Positions 9,054-14,008 of a stretch of DNA of 41,972 bases are shown here, piece after piece. Made by a program: the position numbers and the translations under genes. Below the pieces are notes generated by a model, which saw nothing but the letters and a program-made list of their open reading frames with translations, made no database searches and had not been told where the DNA came from. Origin of the DNA: Escherichia phage vB_EcoS_fTaEco03; the sequence record MT711528.1; one strand, 5' to 3'. The first letter of the stretch is position 1. Each line of letters begins with the position of its first letter.

Positions 9054-9466
9054 TGGGCTACTTTGAGGACTTAACAAAAGCGTTCGATGTTCCGCTGGTA
9101 GCCTTCGGAACCGCCAACGGCATCAAGGTCGCGCTTGAAAACATCGACGCGCCGACGTCAACCGATACGCCATATCTGGCAAGTTACATGTTACTGGCGG
9201 ATACCGAGCAAGCAGATTTGTTCTTCACGGAACAACGCGCGGGTGTTTATCAGGTCGACATTAACTACGCATCGGTGAAAGGTAGCGCGCCAATCAATAA
9301 AATGGCAGACTTACTTAACACGGCATTCAAAGCAGGTAAGTCATTTTCTCGTAACGACATCTGCGCCGAGGTTCAATCGGTTAGCCTGGGGCCGCTGATT
9401 GTAGAAAACGGAAGGGCCAAACGACCATTGTCAATTAACTTTATTGCATTCACCAAGAGGCTGTGA
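9050..9466 (+). CDS. Tail completion protein, hypothetical
   Basis: 138 aa ORF, overlapping stop/start with neighbours. Confidence 0.4.
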   Translation: MMGYFEDLTKAFDVPLVAFGTANGIKVALENIDAPTSTDTPYLASYMLLADTEQADLFFTEQRAGVYQVDINYASVKGSAPINKMADLLNTAFKAGKSFSRNDICAEVQSVSLGPLIVENGRAKRPLSINFIAFTKRL

Positions 9467-10635
9467 ATATGGCTACAACTCCTTTTAAGGGCGCGAATAC
9501 TGCGCAATTCTATGTGGCAGAAACTACCCCTGGCGTAACACCGACTAACCCGGTCTGGTCGCCATTGCGCAACACAGGTGGCGTTCCTGCCATTACCCGC
9601 GACACGCTGACCTCCAACGAACTGGACGGCAGCCGTGAAACTACGTCAATCCGCACCGGTAACAAACAGGTTAGCGGAGAATACGCTATTGAGCTTAGCT
9701 CGAAAAGCCAGGATGACTGGCTGGCGGGAGCTTTAGGCTCTACATGGCAATCCGGTAGTTCTCTGACCGGGCTATCAATTACCGTCGCGCCTGCAGACAA
9801 GACCTTTACCCGTGCCGAAGGTAGCTTTATTTCTGACGGCGTTGAAGTGGGCGACCTGATTGCGTTTACCGACTTAACCGGTGACAACGCAAAACCGTTT
9901 ATCGTAACTGCAGTAGAGGCGCTGGTAGTGACCGGGGCGGGTATCCAGCATACCCTGACCACAGAGACAGTAACTACCGCCGCTAAGACAGGGGATAAAC
10001 TGGAAACGGGAAGCCAGTGCAAGACGTTCTCTATTCTCACCTGGTACAAAGGCCAGTGCGGCGGGACTGACGCGTACACACTAACCAAAGGCGTGGAAGT
10101 TTCTGGTTTTACCATCGAACAGGCTGTTAACGCTATGGTAACTGGCAGCTTCCCGTTCATCGGTCGCAGTCAGGAGATTCTCACCACGCAGCCGTCTGGT
10201 TCTGATTTCTCCTCTGTTACGTTTGGTGACGAGCCATTCTCCTCGGTCGATGTTTCTGTGTTCGACGGTTCTACGCCGTTGCGTTGCGACAGCCTGACCA
10301 TCACCAACGACAACAGCGCGTCCGCACAGTTCGAACTCGGCAACACTAACGTAGCGTTTGTGGAGCGTAGCCGAGCAGCTAACACCTTCTCCATCTCCGG
10401 TAAGCTGTACGACATGGCGATGATTCAGAAGTTTATCAACGAGCAGCAGGTGGAGATTAACTCTATTCTGGCTGGGGTAAACGGGGCTATGTCTTTCAGT
10501 TTGAAACGTGCAGAACTTACGGCGGTTACACCTGAGATTGGAGGACCTGAGTCAATCACTCAGTCTATTGAAGGCCAGGCTACTGGCAACCAGTACCAGT
10601 CGTCTATTGTTATTCAGCGTATCACATACGCATAA
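9463..10635 (+). CDS. Major tail protein (putative)
   Basis: 390 aa ORF, last gene before bidirectional terminator; position upstream of chaperone/tape-measure genes. Confidence 0.5.
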   Translation: MNMATTPFKGANTAQFYVAETTPGVTPTNPVWSPLRNTGGVPAITRDTLTSNELDGSRETTSIRTGNKQVSGEYAIELSSKSQDDWLAGALGSTWQSGSSLTGLSITVAPADKTFTRAEGSFISDGVEVGDLIAFTDLTGDNAKPFIVTAVEALVVTGAGIQHTLTTETVTTAAKTGDKLETGSQCKTFSILTWYKGQCGGTDAYTLTKGVEVSGFTIEQAVNAMVTGSFPFIGRSQEILTTQPSGSDFSSVTFGDEPFSSVDVSVFDGSTPLRCDSLTITNDNSASAQFELGNTNVAFVERSRAANTFSISGKLYDMAMIQKFINEQQVEINSILAGVNGAMSFSLKRAELTAVTPEIGGPESITQSIEGQATGNQYQSSIVIQRITYA

Positions 10636-10639
10636 AACT

Positions 10640-10663
10640 AAGGCCCCGTTTGGGGCCTTTTTC
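10640..10663. terminator. Bidirectional terminator between converging genes
   Basis: aggccccGTTTggggcct with T-run on plus and A-run upstream (T-run on minus). Confidence 0.7.
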
Positions 10664-11218
10664 TTACAAGCCTAATCTTAAAGCAATGCCTATAGCGTTC
10701 GATTTAACGTAACCCGGTATGATGTAGGTGTCATAATATTTTACACCATCAATATCGTACAGGTAACCGCGGCTGTCCCCTTCAAACGTATGGCCGTCTC
10801 TGTGCAAGCGGACGATTCTCACATCATGCCCCGCGGCAACGATAGGGGCTACTTCGCTGGCGAACCCGCCATCAGACACCACAAAAACTTCGTCGCCGTC
10901 GGGCAAGTTTCCGGCAAGATACTTACCGAAATAATCATCACCGAATACCGGTTTAATGAATTGCTCGGAAATGGCAATCATGAACTGACGCCGAGACAAC
11001 CCGTTAAGGAAACCCTCTGGCTTTTCTTTCCGCGCCCGGTCGTCGTAGCCGTCGAGAAACTCGCGGTAAGCATCCTGGCCTAACGCAGCCATAGCAATAT
11101 TGAACATCGGATTCTTGAAACTGGCGACACCCTTCGCAAAGCCCATTTCTACCAGCGCCCTAGCAAGTGTGTCTTTCCCGCAGCCTGCAGGGCCATTAAG
11201 AATAATTACCTTAGCCAT
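10664..11218 (-). CDS. P-loop nucleotide/polynucleotide kinase (dNMP-kinase-like)
   Basis: 184 aa; Walker A GPAGCGKDT at N-terminus. Confidence 0.55.
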   Translation of the reverse strand: MAKVIILNGPAGCGKDTLARALVEMGFAKGVASFKNPMFNIAMAALGQDAYREFLDGYDDRARKEKPEGFLNGLSRRQFMIAISEQFIKPVFGDDYFGKYLAGNLPDGDEVFVVSDGGFASEVAPIVAAGHDVRIVRLHRDGHTFEGDSRGYLYDIDGVKYYDTYIIPGYVKSNAIGIALRLGL

Positions 11219-11703
11219 TATTTATCACTCCCATGTGGTTTTAAGTGTGTAGAGTTCCCGTTACAGTCGTATTCAGTAACTGCGTGAGTGGTTATGCCGA
11301 GTTCGCGGAAATGCTTTATTACCGCTGGAGAGTCGTCGAATGCACACAAGATTCTCTCCGGCCCAATAGCACGCAACACCTCTTCTTTAATTACGATGTC
11401 TTTTCTGTTGTCGTGTTTGCTGCGCATGATTAACTGATAAAATTCGACGCGGTGGCGATGCAACCACATTCTGGTTTCTTTTTCCGCGTCATCACTACGG
11501 CCTGTTAAGATAATAACGGCATAGCGACGATTAAGGGCGTTACACAGTTCGATGTTATCTTTAATGGGTGCATCGTCTTTGCACGCCATGTTAAATGGTT
11601 TCCACGCCCAGGTTTCGCCGTAGTTATCTTTCGGCAGCAGGTGTAAACGATGAGTACCATCTGCCAATGTCCCGTCTAAATCGAAAATCACAATATCTTT
11701 CAT
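11218..11703 (-). CDS. HAD-superfamily phosphatase
   Basis: 161 aa; N-terminal HAD motif I FDLDGTLAD; overlapping start/stop with neighbours. Confidence 0.6.
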   Translation of the reverse strand: MKDIVIFDLDGTLADGTHRLHLLPKDNYGETWAWKPFNMACKDDAPIKDNIELCNALNRRYAVIILTGRSDDAEKETRMWLHRHRVEFYQLIMRSKHDNRKDIVIKEEVLRAIGPERILCAFDDSPAVIKHFRELGITTHAVTEYDCNGNSTHLKPHGSDK

Positions 11704-12830
11704 CCAAGCATCTCCGGTGAAATAGTTAAACGTGCGACCTCGCCATATTCGGCGCTATAAGTAATTACGTTTGCACTGCGGCCCGACATCCACCCACCGC
11801 GGGAGGCATATGCATCTTTAGCCGCGAGAGTGCGGTGTTGCTCAACAATCATGTTACGGCTTTCTACAATCTTTTGGTGGTGCAGGTGACCCACGTGGGC
11901 GTAGCTGTAAACACTCTCGCCGAACGCTTTGCGGAACTTGGCAATCATAACCGGTTCGATAGCGTCGAATCGTGCTTTATGCCCATGATGGAAGAACAGC
12001 GTCGTTTTGCCGTGTTGCACCATCTTGTAAACATCCGGCGACGTATCGACGAACACACGCGGTTCATTGTCGTACAGCGTACTAAACATCTCAGCTAACC
12101 AAATCATTCCGCTTTCGTCGTGGTTACCTTGCACGATAAGCAAGCGAACATTTTTATGTTTAACGAGAGCCATATCAATGACACGGCGGACCATACGAAT
12201 CATGTAGCGTACAAGTTTCTGATAGCGGGTGTCAGCGTCAAGAACATGACCACTGGCAGGTGTAACGGCGTCCAGACTATCGAAATGCGCAAGGTCGCCC
12301 AGCAGATTAATAACTCCTGTTCCGGCATCCGGTGCTTTCTGGAACGCTGCGTCGAACCAGCGGGAGAACAGGTCTTCCGCAATCTTCATGTCCCAGTCGT
12401 CGCCGCTCTCGTCAGCCCAGGCCAGCATACCGAGATGGAAATCAGACACAGTGTAAAGGTTGAGTAGCTTGTCGTCTCGTTTGGCGCGAACGGCTTTAAC
12501 AGGTGCAACTGGTGTAATCTCCGACTTCATGCCTTCGATTACGGCTTTCATCAATTCAACCTGACGTTCGGCATCGGTGTCGGTCTTAACCCATTGCAAC
12601 TTGGTGTTGCCAAACTCATCCACCAGTGATGATGTTCCTTTAATCTTGTAGCCGTCCGGTACAAGGTAACTAACGTCACGCCCGTGGCCTACACCTTTCT
12701 TAGCCAGCTTCGCTTTACGTATACGAATAACGCGGTCGGAGATGCCGTATTTACGGGCGATGTCGATATTCTTCATACCGGCGTTCAATTCTTCCTGTAA
12801 CTGTTCGTCGGTTATTTTCTTCCTGGCCAT
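11700..12830 (-). CDS. Calcineurin-like metallophosphoesterase with N-terminal HTH domain
   Basis: 376 aa; phosphoesterase motifs DFHLG, GDLAHFD, GNHDE, GHLHH in order; N-terminal ~45 aa HTH-like segment; GAGGAA RBS. Confidence 0.6.
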   Translation of the reverse strand: MARKKITDEQLQEELNAGMKNIDIARKYGISDRVIRIRKAKLAKKGVGHGRDVSYLVPDGYKIKGTSSLVDEFGNTKLQWVKTDTDAERQVELMKAVIEGMKSEITPVAPVKAVRAKRDDKLLNLYTVSDFHLGMLAWADESGDDWDMKIAEDLFSRWFDAAFQKAPDAGTGVINLLGDLAHFDSLDAVTPASGHVLDADTRYQKLVRYMIRMVRRVIDMALVKHKNVRLLIVQGNHDESGMIWLAEMFSTLYDNEPRVFVDTSPDVYKMVQHGKTTLFFHHGHKARFDAIEPVMIAKFRKAFGESVYSYAHVGHLHHQKIVESRNMIVEQHRTLAAKDAYASRGGWMSGRSANVITYSAEYGEVARLTISPEMLG

Positions 12831-12867
12831 GCTTATTCCTCGTGTTTAGGATTTGTCCTATACTAGC

Positions 12868-13074
12868 TCACTTCTCTTTGACATTCGAGTTGCACGCCCA
12901 GATTAAGATAAATACCCACGGCAGCAGAACCCAACCAAGAAACAGATTAGCCATGAATATCGCTAACTTCGCTTTATGGTTACGGAAGTACGCAACCAGG
13001 AAAGGCGCGAAATAAGCTAGCAGTGCAAACAGAATTAAGGAAACTGGTAAACTTGACATTTTAAACCCCTTCAT
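12868..13074 (-). CDS. Small two-TM membrane protein, superinfection-immunity (Imm)-like
   Basis: 68 aa, two hydrophobic helices flanking FRNHK and GWVLLPW motifs recalled from Imm-type proteins; first gene after minus-strand promoter. Confidence 0.4.
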   Translation of the reverse strand: MKGFKMSSLPVSLILFALLAYFAPFLVAYFRNHKAKLAIFMANLFLGWVLLPWVFILIWACNSNVKEK

Positions 13075-13089
13075 TGTTGGTGTAAGTGA

Positions 13090-13118
13090 ATAGTACCCTA
13101 TTATATTGGGGTGTGCAA
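13090..13118 (-). promoter_or_regulatory. Promoter family member (TTGCAC - 17 - TACTAT) with AATAG-N4-CTATT inverted repeat
   Basis: Minus strand reads CTTGCACACCCCAATATAATAGGGTACTATTCAC, near-identical to 35245-35278 on plus strand. Confidence 0.5.
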
Positions 13119-13226
13119 GTAATGTGATAGAATAAGTTTGCGCCTAGTGTCGCACACGAAAAGCGGGTGGTTCCCGTCTGGCGCATTTATCGTTAACCTG
13201 TAACCTCTTAACCAAAGGATTAAAGA

Positions 13227-13643
13227 ATGAAACTTTCTGATTTTTATTTCGAAGAGAAAGCACTGGTAGGCAAGAAGATGCCCATTCTGCTGCCAAACGG
13301 CGAAGACTCCGGTGAATGGCTTAACGTTGTAAGTCCCGATGCGGATGTCGCCGTTAAAGCGGGGCGTGCTTTCATTATTGCGTACCGTCGCGGGTTGGCG
13401 CGTTTCGAAGAACTGGAAAAAGCCGCCAAAGAATCCGGCGACTATACTGAATATAACCTGGCTATTAACGAACTGGCGGAAGACCTCAACCGGCAACTCG
13501 CGGCAGAAGTCGTAAACGGCTGGAGCTTTGATGAGCCTTTCTCTAAAGAAGCATTTAACAAATTGCTGGACCAGTTCAAGGCATTAGGCACACAGGTAGC
13601 AGCGTTCCATAACGCTGAGCGCAAAGCATTACAGGAAAAGTAG
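13227..13643 (+). CDS. Tail assembly chaperone (gpG-like)
   Basis: 138 aa acidic protein directly upstream of tape measure; AAGGA RBS; ends GAA AAG TAG at slippery run. Confidence 0.55.
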   Translation: MKLSDFYFEEKALVGKKMPILLPNGEDSGEWLNVVSPDADVAVKAGRAFIIAYRRGLARFEELEKAAKESGDYTEYNLAINELAEDLNRQLAAEVVNGWSFDEPFSKEAFNKLLDQFKALGTQVAAFHNAERKALQEK

Positions 13644-14008
13644 ACGCGCTGTACAGGTTCGCCACCTATGAGTTTGTGGATAAGCATAAAATCAGAGAGT
13701 TTGATTCTATAGCCGACGGACACGAACAGGCGCTTATCGCGATGGGTGTAATCGATAAGAAAAAACGTGCAGCGCGACGGGGTGGGCCAGAATGCCCGCC
13801 CCTTTTTATATCCACCTTCGAGACGTACTGCGACATTAAGTTTACGCGACACGTGCGCGAGGACGCTGTAGTATTGTTCGCAAGAGAATCCGTTACGTGG
13901 CAAGACCTGAAAGCCTATCTCGATGTTACGCAAAAACAGCTTAGCCTGTTCGAGATAGACATTATCATGGGCTTAGAAGCAATCTTTGAAGGTAGAAATC
14001 ATGGCTGA
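13619..14008 (+). CDS. Tail assembly chaperone frameshift extension (gpGT-like C-terminal part)
   Basis: Open -1 frame overlapping end of 13227-13643 and running to tape measure start; no good independent start. Confidence 0.45.
   Translation, partial: AQSITGKVDALYRFATYEFVDKHKIREFDSIADGHEQALIAMGVIDKKKRAARRGGPECPPLFISTFETYCDIKFTRHVREDAVVLFARESVTWQDLKAYLDVTQKQLSLFEIDIIMGLEAIFEGRNHG
13634..13640 (+). other. Putative -1 programmed ribosomal frameshift site (GGAAAAG)
   Basis: A AAG lysine codon just before TAG; the -1 frame is open from 13619 to 14008. Confidence 0.45.

Follow-up and report, generated by a model that had tools for sequence, protein, structure and literature searches.

Four minus-strand genes lying between the tail-tube and tail-chaperone genes of Escherichia phage vB_EcoS_fTaEco03 encode an Imm-like membrane protein, a metallophosphoesterase with an N-terminal HTH (HTH-MPE), a HAD phosphatase, and a P-loop kinase. 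With moderate confidence, we propose that this island, as a leftward unit separate from the late operon, serves mainly in DNA breakdown and deoxynucleotide supply during host takeover. The phosphoesterase is a conserved, nuclease-like core gene, and the phosphatase and kinase are an optional pair that recurs behind it.

Organization of the island

The window analyzed here is the stretch of 41,972 nucleotides in record MT711528.1, a Kagunavirus (K1G-like) genome. The island is 99.8% identical to that of phage fKuEco01, where the genes are already annotated, and it matches its surroundings in GC content (0.49). It is flanked by the tail tube gene (9463-10635, plus strand) and the tail chaperone genes (13227-14008, plus strand). 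Reading leftward on the minus strand, its genes are those for the Imm-like small membrane protein (12868-13074; a 68-amino acid open reading frame with a likelier start at ATG 13059, giving 63 amino acids), the HTH-MPE (11700-12830; 376 amino acids), a stand-alone HAD phosphatase of the PNKP-phosphatase type without a kinase domain (11218-11703; 161 amino acids), and a P-loop nucleotide kinase of the T4 gp1 (dNMP kinase) family (10664-11218; 184 amino acids). All remaining genes from 1 to 23161 are structural plus-strand genes (terminase, portal, head, tape measure, tail tip, and tailspike), confirming the initial annotation of an oppositely oriented block within a morphogenesis run. The four gene identities proposed there were also correct, with family assignments far above chance: PF25109 (HAD_PNKP) at 7.8e-20, PF14373 (Imm_superinfect) at 9.3e-13, phrog_139 for the kinase at 5.4e-46, and phrog_704 for the MPE at 3.7e-167. 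None of the four proteins had a match in PADLOC, and NCBIfam gave nothing above its cut-offs.

The MPE and HAD genes overlap by 4 nt and the HAD and kinase genes by 1 nt, and these start/stop overlaps suggest co-translation. A candidate sigma70-type promoter for the island is predicted on the minus strand at 13090-13118 (TTGCAC at 13118-13113, N17, TACTAT at 13095-13090) and is conserved across genera, the Jerseyvirus equivalent being TTGCAT-N17-TATTAT in the matching place; the initial annotation had likewise credited the island with a promoter of its own. An overlapping match from the promoter scan (ATCACA-N17-TATAAT, 13128-13100) is not kept in the Jerseyvirus loci. At the other end, the tail-tube gene on the plus strand and the kinase gene on the minus strand share a hairpin terminator (10640-10659) with an 8-bp GC-rich stem and a T-run on each strand; folding energies for the plus and minus strands are -15.8 and -19.1 kcal/mol, respectively, with z about -2.9. 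The island had been described as bracketed by a bidirectional terminator; the hairpin is indeed bidirectional, but the bracketing is too strong because it stands at one end only, the opposite end being a divergent promoter region.

Elsewhere the phage genome encodes PolA, a gp2.5-like SSB, an exonuclease, and a helicase-primase. The absence of a ligase noted in the initial annotation holds for DNA and RNA ligases across the genome, since every plausible-gene open reading frame of at least 250 amino acids is assigned to structure, replication, or lysis.

Distribution and synteny

Relatives were searched with a six-sequence alignment of the MPE as the query. In answer to the question of presence or absence raised by the initial annotation, the MPE is constant, occurring at the island position in every Guernseyvirinae locus examined, while the HAD and kinase genes are present in 12 of 35 Guernseyvirinae loci and absent from the other 23. 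The phrog_704 MPE family has more than 4600 clusters at 50% identity and is a core gene in Guernseyvirinae, Drexlerviridae, and Dhillonvirus; an exonuclease of the HTH-MPE type is persistent in 508 of 522 Drexlerviridae (PMC13164509). In T1-like phages and Dhillonvirus the MPE adjoins lysis or terminase genes, where an early role in host takeover has no obvious fit.

In IMG/VR, 16 Kagunavirus loci and 35 Webervirus-like loci have the order MPE, HAD, kinase, as does phage Bubbly, and the order extends to lineages whose MPEs are only 41-50% identical. Wherever they occur, the HAD and kinase genes are together, with overlapping start and stop codons. Comparable arrangements are built from other proteins: 18 Vequintavirus-like and other loci have an HTH-bearing RNase-H-fold exonuclease (phrog_403) followed by the kinase and a different HAD (phrog_420), and in T7-like Vibrio phages another MPE (phrog_221) is followed by a nucleoside deoxyribosyltransferase-like gene and then the kinase. 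Direct comparison of the island MPE with those of phi-A318 and a Vequintavirus-like phage showed no similarity. Both the recurrent order of nuclease, HAD, and kinase and its non-homologous replacements argue for a working unit in DNA breakdown and deoxynucleotide supply, although phrog_403 may be no more than the proofreading subunit of a polymerase, and the argument from displacement would then be weaker. A thymidylate synthase lies near such a locus in one case.

The genes that follow the MPE vary within one genus and include HAD plus kinase, a 76-amino acid gene (phrog_2452), HNH endonucleases, a Rha/Ant antirepressor, and methyltransferase fragments. The 76-amino acid gene, which replaces HAD and kinase in many relatives, is neither a T7 gp1.7-type nucleotide kinase nor a kinase remnant. 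Such variable cargo, together with the frequency of HNH homing endonucleases at the site, could mean that the island is no functional unit and that the site behind a core gene is a hot spot where recombination or homing gathers unrelated genes, with HAD and kinase as a mobile cassette. The genes for the "PNK" (gp09), dNMP kinase (gp14), and MPE (gp66) are dispersed in TLS (PMC11447400), and an SH3 protein occupies the equivalent slot in Drexlerviridae (PMC13164509), both in keeping with this explanation. It is nevertheless unlikely in view of the recurrence of the same three genes where the MPEs have diverged to 41-50% identity, the invariable pairing of HAD and kinase, and the analogous trios of non-homologous proteins in other phage groups.

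The HTH-metallophosphoesterase

The N-terminal HTH of the phosphoesterase, which the initial annotation had rightly recognized, consists of three helices in the AF2 model (residues 8-44, nt 12699-12809), and in the Webervirus orthologue Sigma70_r4_2 exceeds the Pfam cut-off. A beta hairpin and helix (residues 61-103) separate it from a calcineurin-fold catalytic domain (residues 119-376, nt 11703-12476). All five calcineurin motifs (DxH, GD, GNH[DE], H, and GHxH) are present, and D130, H132, G178, D179, N236, H237, H282, G314, and H317 are invariant among 54 sequences with 31-49% identity; this diversity comes from a library of 50% clusters, as the first homologue search returned near-identical sequences only.

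The initial annotation had called for a comparison of Mre11/SbcD-like with PP2A-like enzymes. By its structural model the MPE appears closest to DNA nucleases (PolD DP1, Mre11, and SbcD), and PPP-type Ser/Thr phosphatases (PP2A, lambda phosphatase) are not its nearest structural class. The top Foldseek match is Rv0805, a cyclic-nucleotide phosphodiesterase, at TM scores of at most 0.43 with no close solved relative, and for the MPE and the kinase, PDB sequence searches with single sequences and profiles returned no more than weak Mre11/SbcD matches and noise from P-loops or HTHs. Literature searches for an experimentally tested function of the phrog_704 family yielded genome reports only.

A nuclease of this kind could instead act on phage DNA in replication or recombination, as an Mre11-like resector or DP1-like proofreader, with the kinase and HAD as ordinary neighbors from nucleotide metabolism. 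This would fit the annotation of TLS gp66 as a "proof-reading exonuclease" (PMC11447400), the dependence of T1-like phages, which have no polymerase of their own, on recombination genes, and the polymerase-type 3'-5' exonuclease that is the Vequintavirus counterpart. It is rather improbable here: no Rad50/SbcC or DP2 partner is encoded in the phage genome, the phage PolA has its own exonuclease domain (phrog_403 signal), and the neighbors that the MPE has in other families, genes for lysis or terminase, are atypical of replisome parts.

The HAD phosphatase and the kinase

The HAD protein belongs to phrog_415 (2.9e-67) as well as to HAD_PNKP. Compared with residues 161-298 of RB69 PseT it has 29% identity (E 9e-13), with DLDGT, (S/T)GR, RKD, and DD conserved, and on these motifs it is a predicted DxDxT-type 3'-phosphatase domain as in Pnkp systems. 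Its PDB sequence matches are Pnkp1 of an RNA-repair system, which is the best, and the phosphatase domain of T4 Pnk. The database label "polynucleotide kinase" for this 161-amino acid protein is wrong, however, since it has no kinase domain. T5 Dmp, a 5'-dNMPase, is also in phrog_415 (3.6e-57) but has no Pfam HAD_PNKP match; BLAST weakly aligns only 48 N-terminal residues of the island protein with it (E 1e-4), so by this measure the island HAD is closer to the PseT 3'-phosphatase than to Dmp.

The kinase shares phrog_139 with T4 gp1, which matches that family at 1.8e-65, and its P-loop GCGKDT corresponds to the SGKDT of gp1. Foldseek with its AF2 model (pLDDT 93.9) ranked phosphomevalonate kinase 7xnd, a small-molecule kinase, first, the T4 dNMP kinase 1DEK second, and adenylate kinases after these; 1DEK has the highest TMq (0.65) among the solved structures matched. 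From its family and modeled fold the protein looks like a T4 gp1-type dNMP kinase, with dNMP phosphorylation as its predicted activity. Identity as a 5'-OH polynucleotide kinase is not supported: there is no match to the Pnk PHROGs phrog_505 or phrog_2071 (PseT), the top 50 fold matches contain no polynucleotide kinase, and where hhalign aligns the kinase profile with RB69 PseT (92% probability), the 62 N-terminal columns cover the P-loop region only, with the non-conserved "AMAAL" facing "RDDYR", the stretch with the catalytic Asp/Arg of Pnk.

These results bear directly on the end-healing analogy of the initial annotation, in which a HAD 3'-phosphatase, a kinase, and a phosphoesterase would together restore ligatable RNA or DNA ends after attack by host defense nucleases, like T4 Pnkp or bacterial Pnkp/Hen1. 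The PNKP family membership and PseT motifs of the HAD, its best match to Pnkp1, and the PseT alignment of the kinase are all in keeping with it, and the domain order of mammalian PNKP is HAD then kinase, as in the island. The kinase, however, has gp1-family membership with 1DEK and NMP-kinase folds and does not conserve the aligned Pnk Asp/Arg region, the genome has no ligase, and ApeA, a system that cleaves tRNA, is effective against Guernseyvirinae, all of which make end healing quite improbable. The initial annotation had itself named two findings that would count against it, an ordinary dNMP kinase and a phosphoesterase present at this position in all relatives, and essentially both were obtained: the kinase falls with phrog_139 and the 1DEK fold, and the MPE is constant at the locus in the Guernseyvirinae examined. 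That the enzymes act together is nonetheless supported by recurrent synteny, and among the other roles suggested at the outset nucleotide salvage is the best fit.

Least probable of all is that the MPE, as a small-molecule phosphodiesterase, destroys alarm nucleotides or the nucleotide signals of immunity, whether cyclic or linear, clearing danger nucleotides (m6-dAMP, deoxydinucleotides) together with the HAD, for while Rv0805 is the top Foldseek match, the HAD is related to a 5'-dNMPase, and described defenses sense m6-dAMP (PUA-Cal-HAD) or deoxydinucleotides (ApeA) from phage-driven DNA breakdown, the enzyme is fused to a conserved DNA-binding HTH, no PADLOC or anti-defense family matches, and Guernseyvirinae are still sensitive to ApeA.

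The Imm-like membrane protein

The first gene of the island scores 48.3 bits with PF14373 against a gathering cut-off of 27.9, matches phrog_1039 at 4.7e-23, and has an AAGGGG ribosome-binding site before ATG 13059; its translation contains two hydrophobic stretches. The Jerseyvirus orthologue scores 56.7 bits with PF14373, and Imm was detected by HMM in 23 of 35 Guernseyvirinae-type loci. Superinfection exclusion is a reasonable prediction at the level of the family. The transcriptome paper on the Kagunavirus K1B4 places Imm among the "late" genes, at a resolution too coarse for the timing of the island.

Proposed function and significance

Gene structure, family membership, fold, and synteny together suggest the following activities and substrates for the breakdown and supply of DNA precursors. 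Imm would belong to the T4 Imm family as a small protein of the inner membrane and probably excludes the DNA of superinfecting phages. The HTH-MPE would be a binuclear-metal phosphodiesterase with an intact catalytic site, from the branch of the DNA nucleases (DP1/Mre11/SbcD-like), recruited to DNA by its own HTH in place of a Rad50/SbcC or DP2 partner, and would most likely cut the host chromosome or replication and recombination intermediates to yield 5'-dNMPs. The HAD may remove phosphate from 3'-phosphorylated ends or 3'-dNMPs, like T4 PseT, or from selected 5'-dNMPs, like T5 Dmp, and the gp1-type kinase would convert dNMPs to dNDPs that feed the family-A DNA polymerase encoded by the phage. 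The nuclease-like MPE is a core gene, and HAD and kinase would serve as an optional booster cassette. Several points count against the supply model. Most Guernseyvirinae loci lack HAD and kinase, and the MPE has no close solved relative. A dNMP phosphatase beside a dNMP kinase would create a futile cycle unless their specificities differ. Dhillonvirus, with a 76%-identical MPE, resists ApeA, a defense thought to sense DNA-breakdown products, while Guernseyvirinae are sensitive to it.

A further-reaching reading, which is possible but advanced only tentatively, is that the phrog_704 HTH-MPE is the host-chromosome-degrading nuclease of T1-type phages and also, with the phosphatase and dNMP kinase, forms a dedicated three-enzyme salvage line rebuilt from non-homologous parts in several unrelated phage lineages. 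T1 and TLS both break down the DNA of the host and reuse its nucleotides, with no gene assigned; the degradation by T1-type phages has been known since 1981 and affects transduction frequency (PMC11447400). As a nuclease-like core gene, the HTH-phosphoesterase is a concrete and easily testable candidate for this gene.

Because GenBank already carries annotations for the block and the literature describes its counterpart in Drexlerviridae, nothing here is categorically new; what is added is the correction of the label "polynucleotide kinase" for the HAD, the gp1-type nature of the neighboring kinase, and the character of the HTH-phosphoesterase as a nuclease-like core gene. Therapy collections make wide use of these phage groups. 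Whether they break down host DNA, and by what means, matters for the risk of transduction and for which nucleotide-sensing defenses are triggered.

Comparison with known systems

The pre-early operon of T5 (A2 - T5.005 - A1 - dmp) encodes the DNA-binding A2, a 2-TM protein, A1, and the 5'-dNMPase Dmp. Host DNA degradation by T5 requires A1, which is also sufficient for it; A1 is predicted to be a metallophosphatase and is similar to Mre11 and to proofreading nucleases. The island resembles the operon in HTH function, a 2-TM protein, a predicted nuclease of metallophosphatase type, and a phrog_415 phosphatase, and some members of the A1 family have an N-terminal HTH; in T5, however, the HTH is a separate protein and the breakdown products are excreted rather than recycled. 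With hhalign, the island MPE and T5 A1 align over 21 columns around GNHD only (probability 19%), and with the A1-family profile the HTH alone aligns (probability 33%), with no homology detected in the catalytic domain. The parallel is therefore one of analogy rather than homology. Mycobacteriophage A10ZJ24 gp48 is an MPE that has phosphodiesterase activity and damages the genomic DNA of its host (PMC12287305), but it belongs to a separate MPE family from phrog_704 and, with motif I at residue 10, lacks an N-terminal HTH; the ten organism names most frequent in the tblastn matches include no Mycobacterium phages.

From T4, three proteins can be compared. The HAD domain of PseT (Pnkp) is homologous to the island phosphatase, with common motifs, but the island has neither a fused or adjacent Pnk-type kinase, its neighbor being gp1-type, nor an RNA ligase partner. 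T4 gp1 (PDB 1DEK) shares with the island kinase its PHROG, the GKDT variant of the P-loop, and the best TM-score, while being longer (241 against 184 amino acids) and alignable from profile to sequence over the P-loop only. T4 Imm is likewise a small hydrophobic protein with an Imm_superinfect domain, and the exclusion activity of the island protein is putative.

The Drexlerviridae block "DNA repair exonuclease - PNK - dNMP kinase - lysis" (PMC13164509) contains orthologues in the same order, with 41-46% identity for the HTH-MPE, about 57% for the HAD, and about 46% for the kinase in T1-like phages. It lies beside the lysis cassette, whereas the island lies within the tail module and runs on the opposite strand, with Imm first and the shared terminator last. 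In Drexlerviridae the "PNK" and dNMP kinase are the commonest genes directly behind the exonuclease, and a role in nucleotide supply has been proposed for both (PMC13164509).

Gene content and flanks

The minus-strand genes in the tail region are best read as a predicted unit for DNA breakdown and deoxynucleotide supply, headed by a superinfection-immunity gene (Imm) that, on the best-supported reading, is unrelated to the rest. The four genes described in the initial annotation are confirmed at 10664-13074, between the plus-strand tail-tube (9463-10635) and tail assembly chaperone (from 13227) genes of the structural block (1-23161; terminase, portal, head, tail, tailspike). They are, all on the minus strand, a P-loop kinase (10664-11218), a HAD phosphatase (11218-11703, 161 aa), a metallophosphoesterase (MPE, 11700-12830), and Imm (12868-13074), already annotated in GenBank as putative deoxynucleotide kinase, putative polynucleotide kinase/phosphatase, metallophosphoesterase, and superinfection immunity protein. 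At the MPE/HAD and HAD/kinase junctions each stop codon overlaps the next start, and GC content is not unusual. Over the surrounding 2.9 kb, identity is 99.8% with Escherichia phage vB_EcoS_fKuEco01 (Kagunavirus, Guernseyvirinae) and 96-98% with the K1G and K1ind phages. The genome also has a lysis cassette and a minus-strand replication block with helicase, DNA methyltransferase, family-A DNA polymerase, gp2.5-like SSB, exonuclease, and helicase-primase.

A GC-rich hairpin at 10640-10659, with T-runs on both strands (-15.8 and -19.1 kcal/mol), plausibly stops both converging units; the initial description of the island is borne out, except that the terminator lies at one of its ends and does not bracket it. 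Upstream of Imm, a 150-nt divergent region is near-invariant between Kagunavirus and Jerseyvirus, and the promoter proposed for the island has a conserved candidate there, TTGCA(C/T)-N17-TA(C/T)TAT on the island strand.

On the plus strand, the conserved intergenic stretch that immediately precedes the chaperone gene (13137-13201) gives a full-model match to Rfam RF02996 (int-alpA RNA) at 31.8 bits, which is 4 bits short of the gathering threshold (E 5.5e-4 for 3 kb); the score is 32.5 bits in another Kagunavirus locus (L017). The middle hairpin has compensatory changes between Kagunavirus and Jerseyvirus (GTGT/ACAC vs CGGT/ACCG), and the element may regulate the downstream tail operon. A 41-aa ORF at 13061-13186 (minus), annotated for fKuEco01 as a hypothetical protein, overlaps this element as well as the conserved promoter, has no family match, and is probably not a gene. 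The chaperone ORFs 13227-13643 and 13676-14008 (plus) each match one half of the 259-position profile phrog_15027, in order, and the fKuEco01 record fuses them into a frameshift product, the programmed frameshift commonly found ahead of the tape-measure gene.

Distribution and synteny

The comparison with related phages called for in the initial annotation covered 35 Guernseyvirinae-type IMG/VR loci retrieved via the MPE. In all 35 the MPE is flanked by the chaperone and tail-tube genes, while Imm is detected by HMM in 23 and HAD plus kinase are present in only 12. The MPE is a core, nuclease-like gene, and HAD and kinase are an optional cassette. Cargo in the remaining loci includes a 76-aa gene, HNH endonucleases, and a Rha/Ant antirepressor; the HNH and antirepressor genes suggest that the slot after the MPE is a variable site driven by homing. 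A pure hot-spot explanation of the island is possible. The conserved 76-aa gene (phrog_2452), found in many Guernseyvirinae, directly follows the MPE in place of HAD and kinase in L012, L014, L020, L025, L035, L084, and others, and also occurs in L005 (5682-5912). Its match is to the last 70 residues of ~240-aa PHROG profiles, and it is not related to the kinase, T7 gp1.7, or any window protein.

The 80 loci of a kinase-seeded set fall into a few architectures. The order is MPE, HAD, kinase in 16 Kagunavirus loci and in 35 that are Webervirus-like. In 3 T7-like Vibrio phage loci, the kinase comes after another type of MPE (phrog_221) and a gene resembling nucleoside deoxyribosyltransferase; in 18 Vequintavirus-like and other loci, it follows an RNase-H-fold exonuclease (phrog_403) and precedes a different HAD-like protein (phrog_420). 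The kinase is accompanied by the exonuclease only in 2 loci and stands alone in 6. That phages have repeatedly brought together a nuclease, a nucleotide kinase, and a phosphatase using non-homologous parts is the best argument for joint function. The phrog_403 proteins, which might be a polymerase subunit, have an N-terminal HTH matching the HTH profile of the MPE family, although HTH motifs are generically similar.

In the T7-like Vibrio phages, as in phi-A318 (L007, 2673-3008), the phrog_221 metallophosphoesterase and a gene for a DUF7768/nucleoside 2-deoxyribosyltransferase-like protein precede the gp1-type kinase and a DNA ligase-like gene follows, another compact nucleotide or DNA-processing cluster.

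The HTH-phosphoesterase

The MPE belongs to phrog_704 (3.7e-167), an extensive family (2050 phage records; 4630 clusters at 50% identity) outside every characterised one. All five calcineurin-fold motifs are invariant across 54 diverse members, so the protein is presumably active. In its AF2 model (pLDDT 90.6), a three-helix HTH at the N-terminus is followed by a beta hairpin plus helix and then by the catalytic domain. This HTH is similar to sigma-70 region 4, LuxR, and GerE, and a Webervirus orthologue exceeds the Pfam Sigma70_r4_2 cut-off; initially thought unusual, it is indeed present, but as a family hallmark rather than a single-gene oddity. Between the nuclease-like and PP2A-like alternatives raised at first, the MPE is nuclease-like; a role in phage replication or recombination is also possible, as is one in removing signal nucleotides. 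Fitting poorly with breakdown and supply, the MPE adjoins late genes in other families: it is solitary in Dhillonvirus, just upstream of the small terminase gene, and is flanked by an HNH gene and holin in TLS. Another poor fit is that Dhillonvirus, which has the MPE, resists ApeA while Guernseyvirinae are sensitive.

Kinase and HAD phosphatase

Pfam and NCBIfam recognise only a P-loop in the kinase. In PHROGs it matches phrog_139 (5.4e-46), as does the biochemically characterised dNMP kinase T4 gp1 (1.8e-65), while RB69 PseT, a polynucleotide kinase/3'-phosphatase, matches phrog_505, 415, and 2071; the island kinase does not match PseT families phrog_505 or 2071. The best fold matches of its AF2 model (pLDDT 93.9) are silkworm phosphomevalonate kinase and T4 dNMP kinase (1DEK, TMq 0.65), then adenylate kinases, with no polynucleotide kinase among the top 50. 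From the shared family and predicted fold, the protein is classed as a small-molecule nucleotide kinase of gp1 type. A contrary result is the hhalign match of the kinase profile to PseT (92% probability, 62 N-terminal columns); that stretch is the P-loop region, and the columns opposite PseT RDDYR are not conserved. Names for this kinase in relatives are inconsistent (Era GTPase, RFC large subunit, methyltransferase, phosphomevalonate kinase).

The HAD protein passes the Pfam HAD_PNKP model (7.8e-20), is 29% identical to the PseT phosphatase domain (E 9e-13) with the DLDGT, (S/T)GR, RKD, and DD motifs kept, and matches Pnkp1 and T4 Pnk phosphatase chains in the PDB. Although its top PHROG, phrog_415, bears the label "polynucleotide kinase", no kinase domain is present. 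The 5'-deoxynucleotidase T5 Dmp also matches phrog_415 (3.6e-57), with weak pairwise similarity to HAD. Judged by sequence, the substrates may be 3'-phosphate ends, 3'-dNMPs, or 5'-dNMPs. In GenBank records of relatives the 161-aa protein is widely named "polynucleotide kinase" or "3'-phosphatase, 5'-polynucleotide kinase", a label that derives from phrog_415.

If phosphatase and kinase shared their nucleotide substrates, the result would be a futile cycle, which fits poorly with breakdown and supply. The end healing first envisaged, with kinase, HAD, and phosphoesterase together healing broken nucleic-acid ends, fails on two defining features: a PNKP-type phosphatase is the sole defining feature kept, while a Pnk-type kinase is missing, as is a ligase, which was not seen initially and is not encoded in the genome.

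Comparison with known systems

A 2026 study of the T1-like group reports that, among 522 Drexlerviridae, a "DNA repair exonuclease" is persistent in 508, and "PNK" and dNMP kinase are the commonest genes right after it, for which better nucleotide supply was suggested (PMC13164509). According to the TLS re-annotation, T1 and TLS break down the host genome and recycle its nucleotides, with no genes yet assigned to this trait (PMC11447400). Another phage MPE, from a mycobacteriophage, likewise disrupts host DNA (PMC12287305). In T5, breakdown of host DNA requires the predicted metallophosphatase A1, which also suffices for it and is said to resemble double-strand-break-repair and proofreading nucleases, while the 5'-dNMPase Dmp raises virulence (bioRxiv 10.64898/2026.04.02.716235). 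The T5 operon order (DNA-binding A2, 2-TM protein, A1, dmp) is mirrored by Imm, HTH-MPE, and HAD; no homology was found between the MPE and A1 catalytic domains, so the parallel is an analogy. DNA-binding A2 is separate from A1 in T5, whereas some A1 homologues (P0463, P0465, P0466, P0467, P0469, P0493, and P0505; 46-48% identity; some contigs ~31-73 kb) have N-terminal HTH domains (PF13384, PF13936, PF04218, PF02796) on the same chain. An HTH joined to a metallophosphoesterase may be a recurrent design of phage nucleases.
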